Source of the DNA: Eledone cirrhosa
Taxonomy: Eukaryota
Length of the DNA stretch: 64,000 bases
Direction: 5' to 3'
Assembly (NCBI GenBank): GCA_964016885.1
Contig: OZ024746.1
Location: 54,250,001 to 54,314,000, forward strand
This document shows positions 1,251 through 54,360 of this stretch, in pieces (position 1 is the first letter of the stretch; each line of letters opens with the position of its first letter). The notes below the pieces were generated by a model, which was not told the origin of the DNA, did no database searches, and saw only the letters and a program-made list of their open reading frames with translations. The translations under genes were made by a program, and so were the position numbers.

Positions 1251-1650
1251 AAGTATGTACACGTACATACATATATGTATACAGACGTACAGTAGTATGT
1301 ATATGTATATACATACATGCACACATATATATATGTACGTATGGATTCACCGAACATTTATTATAATGCTCGGTGTGTTTGTAAACAAACATCCCGTATT
1401 AAGCCGTATTAACAAACGAGCAACGATGGTTGCTAGACACTACGGCTTAATACGGGATGTTTGTTTACAAACACACAGAGCATTATAATAAATGTTCGGT
1501 GAATCCATACGTACATATATATATGTGTGCATGTATGTATATACATACTACTGTACGTCTGTATACATATATGTATGTACGTGTACATACTTATATTTAA
1601 GTAACAGCCGTACTAAGAGTGGGAAATGAAATTTCGTTTCATTTTTCCGT
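1251..1650 (+). mobile_element. Non-autonomous (TA)n-inserted element (family B) with 5' inverted arm; ~155-bp palindrome
   Basis: 1251-1408 is the reverse complement of 1441-1592; the end GAAATGAAATTTCGTTTCATT-TATA is shared with copies at 50657-51362 and 54172-54360. Confidence 0.8.
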
Positions 1651-2299
1651 TTATATATATATATATTTATGTGTGTGTGTGTGTGTGTGTGTGTGTATTT
1701 GTATTTGTCGATACAAATATTTACGTATAGACATATATATATATATATGCATACATGTTTATATATATATATATGTATATATATATATATATATATATAT
1801 ATATATATATATATATATATATATATATATATATATATATATATATATATATACATATATATATATATAAACATGTATGCATATATGAAACTAATGATAT
1901 ATACATATATACACATATAGAAACATACCAAATGTATCTAAACATTTCTGTCAGATATGTATATCCGTCAATATACGAGACAGATAAAGCATTTCCCCCT
2001 CTCTATTGTCAGCCATTATAAAATGTTTGTAGACGTCATAATTTATACACCACTTCCGGTATTTATTTCGTTAGTATTTCAACATAAGTGTTAACATCAG
2101 TTCTGGGGTCAGAGAATTGTTCTACTATTTATTTGTTGTCTGCATGCCTCTCCTCATCTCTCTGTAGGATTCTATCCACCGTCACACGCACATTCTTTTG
2201 AATCAGGTGTATATGTTATATATAAATACACAAAGACACACACACGCGGCCATTCATGCACACAAACGCACACATAAATACGCACATATACAAACACAT

Positions 2300-3276
2300 A
2301 CATAGTTTTCATTATCTGAAGTTTCAATTTTCACATTGCGAGATAGTTTACTTGATTTAAGTTTTCTTCACATGTCATATTCAGATGATGGTAAATTATT
2401 AATAAGCTTATGAATGGACTCTGCGACGTAGGTTTCAAAAGCCCTGACAAGAGTGTTGGCTGACATCCTTTGCTATTGATAACGATGAATTGAAAACTTT
2501 GGTTGAAGCAATTTCTCGCACAACTCTTTGAGAACTTGCAGGAAAGCTAGATATATGCATGCGAACGATTTCTGAACATCTGAACAGACTTGTAAAGGTG
2601 AAGAAACTTGAAAAACGGGTGCCACGTGTATAATCGCCGATATGAAGTCTGTACTTCGCTTCTCTTGCGGAATATCGTTCATTTCTTGATTTACTCAGAG
2701 ACGACGTACGATGATGTGTGGATTTTCTACAACAAACGACAACGCTAAGTGCAGTTGTTGGTCTCAGATGAAGCACCTAAACCTTCCACAGAGACAATGT
2801 TTCACCAAATGATGACTATAGTATTTCTTCGGTAATCTGTAGTCGGATGAATTCTTTACAGCTTTCTAAATCCTGGCGAAGCAATCAGAGCAGAAATGTA
2901 TTTTCACAACGTCAAAGAAATGCATACACATTTCAACGTATATAACCAGCAAATAACCAAAGTAAATCTGCTTTATACAGAATTCTTACTGCGTTTTCAC
3001 CAACAGTCTGTCACATGTTAAAGTATTTTGGACTTCATGTAAAGAAAAGTCTTCAACAATAAAAAAAAAAGGCGCAAAAAATGCATCGACGAATTCATCG
3101 AGTCCACATCTTCAGGATTCTATGTCACCTGAATAAACAAAATTGTCTCCTGTTGGCAAACAAATGTGTAGAATCTAAATGTTTTTATTTTGATCAATAA
3201 AGTATATTTTGGGTCCAGATATATAATTTTGAAGTTAAAGCTTAAACAATTGCATTAATTTCAGAACAAACTAATA
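2300..3276 (+). mobile_element. Degraded mariner (Tc1/mariner) transposon
   Basis: Broken frames read NDELKTLVEAISRTTL*ELAGKLD..TISEHLNRLVKVKKLEKRVP (WVPHEL region), WIFYNKRQR, FLNPGEAI, INKIVSCWQ; 3' TIR-like GCATTAATTTCAGAACAAACTAATA; 5' limit approximate. Confidence 0.75.
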
Positions 3277-3964
3277 GAAATTATTTAATATTATATTATG
3301 AAAGAAATATTAGTCTTTATAGATGTCACAAAATGAAATCAACTCGAGACCGAATAATTTTAATGTGAGATTTTAAACCATACACATGCTGTGTGGGTTA
3401 CCTTGATAAATTATGAATGTCAGAGATTTTCATCCACAACACGGACTTTCTACCTTCTTCCACTAAAATGATTTACAAATTTTAATAAGGTCTAGCATGA
3501 ATAATCACTATCCATACACACACACACACGAACACGTAACATTTTTCACCTTGCTAATGGAATTATTATCCTCATTATTATTGAGATTGTTGTTGCCATC
3601 ATTATTATGTTATCACATGACCTTCTGTACCCGAACGGAGAATGGAATAAATCATCATTGCTACACACACAGACACACACACACACTGTCACTTACACAC
3701 ACACACTGTCTCTTACACACACACTGAACTACACATACACAGAGAGACCAGACACTAATAAATAAAAGAAAATATATTTATTCAAAACAAAGAAAATATA
3801 TTTGTTCACCCGGCTATTTGCTGAACCATAACTACCCAAAACACACACACACGCCCCCCCCCCCACACACACACAGTCATGTATAATTCTTGTTCCTTTT
3901 GCTGATTGGATCGTTATTATTATAGTTGTCATACGGAGGTGATGTTGATGGTAATAATTTTTTT

Positions 3965-4475
3965 TCTTACACTTTACGGCATAGAGTTGCGGTCCTTTAC
4001 GTTCTGAGTTCAATTCCTGTCGAGATTAGCTTTGCCTTTGTGGATTGTCAAAGGGTGGTGGATTGGCAGTATCGGTAGAGGTTCGGACGCCATGCTTTGA
4101 CGCATAGAGTTACGGCCCTTGCCATTCTGAGTTCAAATCCCAAAAGTAGAAACAATTATTAAGGGGTCAATAAAATAAAATACCAGTAATGCACTGTGGT
4201 CGATTTAATCGACTTTCCCTTTCCCCCAAATTGTTGGTCTTGTGCTTAAACCAGAAATCGTTATTATTACTATTGTTGGTGGATTGGCAGCATCGGTAGA
4301 GGATCGGACGCCATGCTTCGCAGCATAGAGTTATGGCCTTTATTATCTGAGTTCAAATCCCGCCGAGTTTAGCTTCTTTGCCTTTCATCCATTACGGGGT
4401 CAATAAAATAAAGTACCAATAATACACTGGGGTAATTGCTGGCCTTGTGACAAAAGTAGAAACAATTATTATTAC
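3965..4475 (+). mobile_element. Cluster of three Meta-SINE copies (one partial, two nearly full)
   Basis: Repeated GGTGGATTGGCAG..GAGTTCAAATCC..GGGGTCAATAAAATAAAGTACC..TTGCTGGCCTTGTG..AGAAACAATTATT starting near 3980, 4053 and 4277. Confidence 0.8.
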
Positions 4476-52241: not shown

Positions 52242-52295
52242 CTTTACTTGCCCTGATGAGTCCTTAATAGGACGAAACATTGTTGGCTAATAAAG
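52242..52295 (+). ncRNA. Type I hammerhead ribozyme
   Basis: CTTTA CTT GCC CTGATGA GTCCT TAAT AGGAC GAAA C ATT G TT GGC TAA TAAAG; overlaps AATAAA; (TA)n ~55 nt downstream. Confidence 0.85.
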
Positions 52296-52477
52296 ACTTT
52301 TGATGTATTGAAGGCTTCTTTGGTTTATTTTTTATAATTTTTATAATTTTTATATATATATATATATATATATATATATATATATATATATATATAATAG
52401 ATTTGTGCCTCCATTCATACATGTTGCATACTTATATATTACAAACTTTATTTTTAAAATCTTGATTCTTTGAACCA

Positions 52478-52882
52478 TACTTTGCAGCATAGAGTTACGC
52501 CCTTTACGATCTGTGTTCATATCCCATTGGGGTTAACTTTGCCTTTCCTCCTGGCGGGCTCGATAAAATAAAGTACCAGTAATGCACTGGAATAATTGCT
52601 GGCATTGTACCAAAAATAGAAACAATTGTTATTATATTATATTATTTATACTATTTATTAAGGGCAGCGGATTGGCAGTATCGGTAGAAGGTCGGACGCC
52701 ATGCTTTTCAGCATAGAGTTATGGCCCTTTACGATATGAGTTCAAATTCCGCCGGGGTTAACTTTGCCTTTCATCCTTACGGGGTCGATAAAATAAAGTA
52801 TCAGTTATGCGCTGGGTTCGATTTAATCGACTTTTCCCTCCCCCAAATTGCTGGCCTTGTGCCTATATGAGAAACCATTATT
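52478..52882 (+). mobile_element. Two Meta-SINE copies
   Basis: Family motifs at ~52478-52630 and ~52662-52882. Confidence 0.8.
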
Positions 52883-54171
52883 TATAATATTTATACTAAT
52901 AGTACTGGATACTCAAATGACATAAAAGTACGATGATTTAAAACTGGGTGTCTATAACCTTACCAGTAGCACAACAGCTATTATTATGGTAAAATGAAAA
53001 CAACTATGGTGATAGCAGTCAGACAATAGCTTCGGGTACTTGCCAATTGACAACACTATATTAGTGTCTACACCCCATAAACTATATTTACGATACATGT
53101 CTATCAAACCTCACCATGTTTTCTTTTGTTTTTATATATGAAATTCCTTTGCGAAATATTTCTCAACTACCCTATGAATCTCATTATGATATTAACTTAT
53201 CTTATATCTAACGTTCGTTGATCATTCTGACATCAGGTCCGCCGGGTGTGAAATAGTTTAATTATTTTAAGATTCTTATTTTTATAGTCATATTCTTTTA
53301 TTCCATATGTTTACATTCCAATATTTTTTGTTCACTTTATTTTAATTTATTTTATCATTATATGAGTTTTTGTTTCCATTTTGATTTGATATTGACTTTA
53401 TTTTTGGTCTTTTGTTTAATATTTCTTTTTTTTTCTGTAAGTGTTCCATGATGTCTGTGTATTTCTAGCGACAGATTGGTTTTATATCTGTCCCTATATC
53501 AACTCGTCTGAAGACGCGTTAATTGTCTGATTCCAGCTATGAAATCACAGTTGCCTTCAGCAGAATTATTATAGAAACAATTGTTAAGTAATAAACGTAT
53601 TGTATTGACCTCTTCGCCCCGTATTTTCATAACAATCTACAATCCTACTTTATGCTATGTTTGGACTTACTAGATTCCTGAACATACGAAAACTATAGAA
53701 TATCTGTGTATCATACCTTTAGCGGATCCAATGATCGCAGTTAGTGATAATAGGTTTTAAAAGAAATATAATTTTATAATCTACTAAACATAATATATGT
53801 ACTCACACAGACACAGACACACACACACACACACACACACACACACACACACACACACACACACACACACACACACACACATATATATATATATATATAT
53901 ATATGTGTATATATATATATATATATATATATATGTATATATATATATATACATATATATATATATACACACATATATATATATATATATATATATATAT
54001 ATATATATATATATATATATATATATATATATATATATATATATATATATGTGTGTGTGTGCGTGTGTGTGTGTCTGTGTCTGTATATATATATATATAT
54101 ATATATATATATATATATATGTATATATATATATATATATGTATATATATATGTATATATATATATATATA

Positions 54172-54360
54172 TTGAAACAAAATGAAAACGAAATTTCATT
54201 TCTCACTCTTAGTATGGCACTTACTTAAATGTAAGTATGCATGTATACGTACATACATATATGTATACAGACGTACAGTAGCATGCACATATATATATAT
54301 ATATATACATATATACATACATATGCATACAGGTACACATACATATATGCACGTATCAGT
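54172..54360 (-). mobile_element. Family B 3' fragment
   Basis: AATGAAAACGAAATTTCATTTCTCACTCTTAGTATGGCACTTACTTAAATGTAAG.. next to (TA)n. Confidence 0.75.

Follow-up and report, generated by a model that had tools for sequence, protein, structure and literature searches.

Penelope-like elements (PLEs), retrotransposons with a reverse transcriptase (RT) and a GIY-YIG endonuclease, and the protein-free retrozymes are the closest described relatives of the repeats reported here. Minimal hammerhead ribozymes in PLE pseudo-long terminal repeats (pLTRs), U3-A8 variants and pairs on opposite strands were described by Cervera and de la Pena (2014; PMC4209133); Craig et al. (2021; PMC8557442) described a preference for TA, inversion of copies, tails confined to one end and non-autonomous PLEs, and call the origin of the tandem and inverted structures, and of the microsatellite bias, undefined. 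Tandem retrozymes and their circles have been reported with PLEs as candidate helpers (PMC7229834; 126,247 motifs in axolotl), and retrozymes have been argued to be PLE derivatives (Li et al., 2026; bioRxiv 10.64898/2026.07.22.740005). In vitro, PAc Poseidon cuts and extends both strands with two start sites and is predicted to be a dimer (PMC11167929, Frangieh et al., 2024), and recently active Penelope families have been annotated among the repeats of Octopus vulgaris (PMC13282606). Here we analysed 64,000 nt of Eledone cirrhosa DNA (assembly GCA_964016885.1, contig OZ024746.1, positions 54,250,001–54,314,000 of the forward strand; hereafter the window, numbered from its first letter), together with sequence sampled elsewhere in the genome. 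At least 29 repeat families of this genome have hammerhead motifs marking their 3' ends; some of these families are truncated PLEs, two are protein-free tandem units, and Penelope RT/GIY-YIG proteins probably placed all of them into (TA)n tracts that were already there.

Hammerhead motifs far exceed chance

A type I hammerhead descriptor was scanned at strict and relaxed settings over the window and over five arbitrarily chosen 200-kb blocks (1.0 Mb) of the genome (3.0 Gb, 1,796 contigs). The window holds six strict motifs, against means of 0.017–0.117 under three Markov orders (60 resamples per order) and none in the reversed window; the sampled blocks hold 74 strict and 127 relaxed motifs (5–28 strict per block), against one strict and five relaxed in the reversed 1.0 Mb and 0–2 strict in each Markov resample. 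The motifs are genuine and far above chance, so that the first-pass annotation of this stretch, made from its letters and open reading frames (ORFs), came through the comparison with matched resamples that it had proposed. Scaled from 0.03% of the genome, there would be roughly 2 x 10^5 such motifs. The rough comparison of about 74 strict motifs per Mb here with about 2,000–9,000 per genome in PMC4209133, for which descriptors differ, places the sampled density apparently well above the totals given there.

The core has the expected form (C3-U4-G5-A6-N7-G8-A9 with G12-A13-A14, or the U3-A8 variant, and an NUH site), and positions 3 and 8 covary: strict scans returned 67 C3-G8 and six U3-A8 cores, against two C3-A8, one U3-G8 and 0–2 for other controls. 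Stems I–III can pair, with an open stem I, and differing stem sequences pair across 29 families; stem III is palindromic in 42 of the 74 strict motifs and U17 is present in 22. Like the minimal hammerheads described for PLEs (PMC4209133), these have a short palindromic stem III, an unpaired base after A9 and U3-A8 cores, form opposite-strand pairs 100–700 bp apart and lie mostly on truncated elements. Minimum-energy single-strand folds contain stems I and II in some copies and usually lack stem III, and lone motifs frequently adopt other folds. No Rfam hammerhead model matched the window at its gathering score, the best match being a sub-threshold HH9 on the array of a 321-nt unit (24.3 bits versus 52); the best 150 of 332 Rfam matches over the window were microsatellite-driven miRNA matches, none of them at gathering score. 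Activity of these predicted ribozymes cannot be assumed, since eight of nine Xenopus dimers showed no cleavage in the data given by Li et al. (2026).

The first-pass annotation named seven well-formed hammerheads (20782, 21530, 37809, 39709, 44314, 50935 and 52242). A core does lie within about 40 nt of each coordinate, but not all pass the descriptor: 21536 (+), 37814 (+) and 39749 (-) pass the strict setting, 50971 (-) and 52253 (+) the relaxed setting only, and 44319 (+) solely with a looser, 3-bp stem II. The remaining core, 20819 (-), fails through altered stems II and III, yet 11 of 25 genomic copies of its family (D) pass. Scans added cores at 21449 (-), 27597 (-), 37648 (-), 40390 (-), 50142 (-) and 50444 (+), while matches at 11476 (-), 2476 (+) and 20786 (-) look like chance.

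Repeat families and their coding parents

Clustering by ends over-merged the repeats and was replaced by hammerhead-anchored clustering, which gave 29 families with at least two members and 25 singletons from 505 references. First-look candidates per family ranged from at least 43 (family C) to at least 2,452 (family G); the best 25–30 loci per family were analysed, which favours young copies.

Family B is a 4.25-kb element with an open frame of 710 amino acids between two hammerheads 4.1–4.3 kb apart. The frame carries the RWK, DKT, CxCX5C, CxxC and CxH motifs and the C-terminal YVG endonuclease motif of the Hydra clade; its Atlas neighbours carry GIY-YIG/RVT_1 at 0.96–0.97, and a search of solved structures with it returned no match. 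In ORF motifs, pLTR hammerhead, (TA)n, tandem and inverted copies and one-ended tail, family B resembles the Hydra-clade PLEs described in PMC8557442; those are generally shorter than 3 kb, whereas family B reaches 4.25 kb with microsatellites in its untranslated region (UTR), and their tails are 30–40 nt against 60–100 nt here, where families are many and density high. Several (TA)n and mixed microsatellites lie within the 3' UTR of family B itself (loci L092–L096), so that full copies spread microsatellites and, with them, new targets.

Families C (37809), H (52242), E (27597) and I also extend into Hydra-type frames, with the endonuclease part alone found 1.3 kb upstream in longer copies of E and the RT part found in I. 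The ORFs of C (L217–L219) and H (L220–L222) align piecewise to the family-B protein; the pieces lie a few hundred nt apart, and retained introns or insertions may account for the gaps. In the family-I hammerhead (L259–L280, upstream of the ORF) the core is U3-A8, stem-loop II spans about 54 nt and stem III measures 4 bp; long loop II regions are also seen in families 10, 13 and 17. Family F gives RT and GIY-YIG Pfam matches, and family D has a Neptune-type GIY-YIG frame (endonuclease part only) about 300 nt upstream in L238, common to other copies. Both carry the CX2-5CxxC linker before GIY-YIG that marks the Neptune clade, with the related Nematis clade also possible. Insertion at TA and the tail of about 40 nt in F agree with the Neptune-clade PLEs of PMC8557442, from which the family-F copy in the window differs by its 5' truncation and the family-F hammerhead by a 3-bp stem II and U17. 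The motifs, rather than an RT tree with reference elements, suggest these assignments to the Hydra and Neptune clades. As a set, B, C, D, E, F, H and I show the single ORF with RT and C-terminal GIY-YIG of endonuclease-bearing (EN+) PLEs, together with tandem or inverted pLTR structure, 5' truncation, a one-ended tail and a pLTR hammerhead.

These parents changed the reading of the window. Its hammerheads had been placed in short non-coding inserts representing many separate non-autonomous RNAs, whereas 20782, 21530, 37809, 44314 and 52242 are 5'-truncated 3' ends of coding PLEs: 44319 ends a 2.2-kb element with an RT and GIY-YIG ORF inside the window, and the other four sites are stubs of longer coding elements. 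The window's own ORF is 5'-truncated and so is likely not a working helper; intact-looking ORFs occur elsewhere (L093–L095).

Fixed 3' ends at (TA)n

Each of eight scored families has two fixed 3' ends, 30–100 nt apart and joined to (TA)n, the short and the long end being used about equally; 5' ends are ragged. Of 187 family copies that could be scored, 173 have (TA)n at the 3' end and, independently of the library, (TA)6+ occurs within 250 nt downstream of 78% of the 74 strict motifs, compared with 12% upstream and 16% for random positions. Library intervals gave TA at 231 of 395 3' ends and 44 of 395 5' ends, compared with 4.0% for random positions and with 10 of 91 ends of a SINE-like (short interspersed nuclear element-like) control, counts that are partly circular as the 29-family library required downstream TA; the 173/187 and 78% counts are independent of this. 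The claim that the inserts abut (TA)n, and the test of family ends against random positions suggested for it, thus bore out. (TA)6+ covers 7.3% of the window and 2.2–6.2% of the five blocks.

Where the 5' junction lacked a same-family inverted arm, TA lay 5' of 30 of 92 copies (one of which looks heterologous on inspection) against a background of 3.6–5.1%. Read-through copies of B, G and I reveal a template with no TA run at the long end, and just a 2–4 nt TA-like match at the start sites. Insert 3' ends lie 50–250 nt beyond the predicted cut, and predicted ribozyme cleavage therefore does not set them.

Fold-backs pair a long end with a short end

The 29-family library covers 14.9% of the window and 2.3–11.7% of the sampled blocks. 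The family copies of the window, many of them fold-backs, are as follows.

1252–1651, no strand: truncated fold-back related to family G, with the short-end arm on the left and the tailed arm (60-nt overhang) on the right; (TA)n on both flanks, no hammerhead match
5370, 21037–21240, 22364, 38054 and 38468: family-I stubs
6809–6895, minus strand: degenerate family-D hammerhead region, core at 6837
6989–7136, plus strand: family-K 3' end, its minimal hammerhead (core at 7026) degenerate; descriptor-passing copies of family K are located elsewhere
10991–11183, no strand: family-I fold-back, 3' half of U3-A8 hammerhead plus tail
15624–15821 and 37325–37524: similar family-I fold-backs
20718–21010, no strand: family-D fold-back, degenerate hammerhead 20819 (-); 3' end of Neptune-type element
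21361–21692, no strand: family-B fold-back, hammerheads 21449 (-) and 21536 (+); Hydra-type 3' pLTR end
27493–27669, minus strand: family-E stub, strict hammerhead at 27597
27724–28145, no strand: fold-back of a distant family-J relative; one arm is short and the other tailed, and an intact core is lacking
32320–32935, minus strand: family-I insertion with the N-terminal beginning of the ORF from a young Hydra-type element
37548–38010, no strand: family-C fold-back, hammerheads 37648 (-) and 37814 (+), short end left and 97-nt tail right; 3' end of Hydra-type element
39571–40460, minus strand: family-A array, 2.8 tandem copies of the 321-nt protein-free unit; U3-A8 hammerhead intact at 39749 and weakened at 40390, third copy failing the scan
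40481–40700, plus strand: family-J arm, head-to-head with family A with no TA between (heterologous join)
42226–44467, plus strand: family F, 5'-truncated Neptune-type element with short end at (TA)n; inverted tail 42226–42277, RT and GIY-YIG frame 42276–43931, minimal hammerhead 44319 with predicted cut after 44347
50031–50633, no strand: family-J fold-back, U3-A8 minimal hammerheads 50142 (-) and 50444 (+)
50657–51362, minus strand: family-G array, about 1.6 tandem copies of the protein-free 442-nt unit; the minimal hammerhead at 50971 has a palindromic stem III
51360–52351, plus strand: family-H stub, hammerhead 52253; 3' end of Hydra-type element, short end repeating a 9-nt motif ahead of (TA)n
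54173–54298: another family-G 3' end

As the first-pass annotation had it, many inserts have a 5' inverted arm: one of the same family was found at 107 of 199 5' junctions, a count that leaves out copies running off the locus edge. An initial classification of these junctions, inflated by low-complexity matches to family B, was redone with masking. Among de-duplicated head-to-head pairs with both arms at TA (n=67), 66 joined a long to a short end and one joined two long ends; within this count the retrozyme-like families A and G were long plus short in 25 of 25. Library-free examination of 557 inter-TA segments gave 83 fold-backs, of which 48 were asymmetric, two symmetric and 33 other, so that symmetric terminal inverted repeats with fixed ends, as in miniature inverted-repeat transposable elements (MITEs) or foldback elements, are not the rule here.

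At common polymorphic sites the two arms carried like alleles 77 times and unlike alleles eight times, with 29 expected if they were independent. In families B, C, E, G and H, though not in A, D and F, the two arms diverged at most about half as much as unlinked copies, and arms of young fold-backs are 91–98% complementary. Inner junctions vary among copies, with 1–8 nt overlaps at 34 of 60 head-to-head junctions (counted without a chance control), and the same outer ends recur on uninverted and coding copies. Asymmetric tailed ends and coding parents support the proposed Penelope link and the view of the fold-backs as Penelope-type inverted insertions.

Three family-D fold-backs (20718–20901; L232, L233) have one inner junction in common, at a 5-nt match between the hammerhead stem I and stem II strands, which could reflect either recurrent microhomology joining or amplification of a fold-back. 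In family C (37548–38010; L031–L060, L217, L218) an A/G site 22 nt before the short end differs between the arms in 12 of 14 fold-backs, other polymorphic sites being alike; two pLTR templates, RNA editing and RT slippage in a nearby direct repeat are candidate sources.

Different families met at seven of 217 head-to-head joins, one of them in the window (A with J at 40460–40481); at L030 a family-A arm passes into a family-F 3' end over a 7-nt match. Later deletion could also have produced such joins. Given their low number and the alleles shared between arms, two unrelated RNAs per insertion was rejected as the main mechanism. Most apparent head-to-tail heterologous joins were library artefacts.

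Protein-free tandem units A and G

The first-pass annotation was right about a tandem retrozyme-like unit. Of its seven sites only 39709 (A, 321 nt) and 50935 (G, 442 nt) are protein-free tandem units: both are ORF-free and of 33–38% GC, the longest ATG frames being 33 (A) and 47 (G) amino acids. At least two cores at unit spacing occur at seven of 30 loci in each family, and in family G two consecutive units with complete hammerheads were found in L225 and L226. As ORF-free tandem units of low GC with a type I hammerhead and no LTR, they match non-LTR retrozymes as described (GC below 50%, coexisting PLEs; PMC7229834; Li et al., 2026), with the differences that no target duplications were seen and that arrays have at most three cores within 3.3-kb loci. 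The G unit lies above the 170–400 nt given for the RNAs and within the 150–450 bp given for the repeats (PMC7229834). Another retrozyme-like candidate is family 13, whose hammerhead has a U3-A8 core: its tandem unit, about 590 nt long, is present as three copies in a row in each of two sampled blocks (L298–L299; L321).

The link between retrozymes and PLEs, proposed in 2020 (PMC7229834) and extended to pLTR kinship in 2026 (Li et al., 2026), has been drawn in those accounts from co-occurrence and kinship. Here the integration signature itself is found on retrozyme-like units: A and G have the two 3' start sites, the tail, TA junctions and long plus short head-to-head pairing (9/9 in A, 16/16 in G). 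From this signature we infer that units A and G are mobilised in trans by Penelope proteins.

Mechanism and alternative explanations

Under our preferred explanation a Penelope protein, probably a dimer, would cut both strands of a TA tract, and one cDNA would be primed from each DNA end, the two ends using different start sites of the pair that flanks the tail; the template RNA would mostly stem from a single source locus, and the TA-like match would be only 2–4 nt. Both cDNAs would usually terminate early and then be joined head to head, giving the fold-backs; units A and G would retain the two start sites and borrow the Penelope machinery in trans. By analogy with published work, the predicted ribozymes may cut multimeric transcripts, many as dimers only, and may be dispensable for insertion. 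PAc is alike in its two internal RT starts bounding a tail, cutting and extension of both strands, AT-rich target and predicted dimer, and differs in having neither a start-site difference between strands nor priming homology (PMC11167929), as against the long plus short pairing and TA-like match here.

Several observations weigh against this explanation. Pfam found no domain in the family-B ORF, and within the roughly 1.9 Mb examined no coding parent turned up for families A, G, J and K or for most of the small ones, nor any link of A or G to one except part of G matching family 16 at 68–73%. The pairing count omits 83 arm pairs in which an arm lacked TA or a defined end, mostly through tandem read-through in A and G, and the library interval counts carry the circularity given above. 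Neither TA nor a known partner was found at 51 of the 92 non-inverted 5' junctions, some of which are later SINE insertions or mis-set boundaries; reconstruction of empty sites from flanks gave six candidates among 187, none clean. Gene conversion could also make arms share alleles. At site 158 of family C the arms differ in 12 of 14 pairs, in both long/short configurations, and one shared template stretch fails to explain it. TA runs are also longer beside family 3' ends (median 33 versus 22 nt), which is adverse or ambiguous.

This last observation bears on whether the TA runs, rather than being old targets, were largely made or lengthened at insertion by slippage of a telomerase-like RT. 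For such lengthening speak the longer runs, the 188 of 744 TA blocks that touch a family 3' end, a terminal 9-nt motif repeated at eight of 15 family-H short ends, which suggests re-priming, and the TA-less state of most non-inverted 5' junctions. We nevertheless regard it as unlikely: TA 5' of the 30 non-inverted junctions is six to nine times background, the templates of B, G and I have no TA run at the long end, 556 of the 744 blocks have no library end, longer tracts may just be bigger targets, and a preference for (TA)n is known for the Hydra, Neptune and Naiad clades covered in PMC8557442. Quite improbable is the original proposal that most motifs are separate non-autonomous ribozyme RNAs copied from circular monomers. 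It draws on the tandem, ORF-free, low-GC character and multi-core loci of A and G, on small circles of such units shown in coral, mussel and axolotl (PMC7229834), and on the many families lacking a coding parent in the sequence examined; however, five of the seven named sites, plus families E and I, extend into RT or GIY-YIG frames, insert 3' ends lie past the predicted cut, and the main substrate in vitro is unprocessed RNA (PMC11167929).

The close complementarity of young arms, the sharing of alleles between arms, and the inner junction shared by three family-D copies, would also fit MITE-like or foldback DNA transposons, or later DNA snap-back of one copy, and yet we give these the slenderest chance. 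Fold-back ends are asymmetric by a family-specific tail (48 versus 2), which excludes symmetric DNA-transposon ends; one arm holds sequence that the other lacks, which argues against snap-back; and inner junctions vary, identical ends occur on uninverted and coding copies, and seven joins unite different families. That A and G are mobilised by long interspersed nuclear elements (LINEs), such as the RT-bearing fragments at 54.9–57.5 kb, instead of by Penelope is very unlikely. LINE-type RT fragments are present in the window, and in the sequence examined neither A nor G could be linked to a coding Penelope parent, but in starts, tail, TA junctions and pairing A and G agree with the Penelope families that have coding copies, only 10 of 91 ends of the SINE-like control lie at TA, and a family-A arm is fused to a family-F 3' end (L030).

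An extension of our preferred explanation is put forward tentatively, as doubtful but possible: Penelope integration might be obligate twin priming, in which a single protein dimer assigns the two ends of the cut (TA)n tract to different start sites on unprocessed tandem RNA, in some cases to those of two pLTR copies (as at family C site 158) or of two RNAs. Animal retrozymes would use this route instead of a circle-only one, and each event would lengthen TA, so that about 2 x 10^5 elements would act as a microsatellite pump.

Relation to published work

Earlier publications already describe pLTR hammerheads, insertion into (TA)n, inverted copies and tails, and derive retrozymes from Penelope elements. 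The literature searched, with supplements and most subscription papers outside it, reported no cephalopod hammerhead elements, no strict long plus short pairing, no PLE end signature on retrozymes and no such density; octopus families may be present in the supplementary data, outside that search, to PMC8557442, PMC4209133, PMC13282606 and Li et al. (2026). The word 'hammerhead' occurs once in a giant-squid genome paper. The helper of animal retrozymes has so far been argued just from co-occurrence and kinship. Near-strict long plus short pairing is an in vivo constraint on the Penelope integration step, and its occurrence on units without an ORF connects retrozymes with this step. Young copies number in the thousands across many families of this genome, and an intact-looking Hydra-type ORF with two short candidate template RNAs makes a trans-mobilisation assay practical. 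Hammerhead stubs could elsewhere be mislabelled as MITEs, miRNA hairpins or unknown repeats.

Other features of the window

Old Hydra-type ORF fragments with 31–54% identity to the family-B protein lie at 63248–63998 and 16861–16977. LINE fragments with RT (Pfam RVT_1) and a C-terminal restriction-like endonuclease motif, which we take to be Dong/R4-like, occupy 11522–12291, 13450–13764 and 54911–57510; the first is 85% alike to 54911–55672 and is followed by (AAT)18. Two frames at 48971–50052, for which Pfam gave no match, presumably resemble LINE ORF1 with a zinc-knuckle motif. An abundant SINE-like repeat of about 200 nt, which served as the control for TA adjacency, is found at 490–706 and about 20 other places in the window. 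A 188-nt tandem unit at 22708–23128 (2.2 copies, 98%) encloses its own TA run; its match is to hammerhead family 22, in the 3' part.

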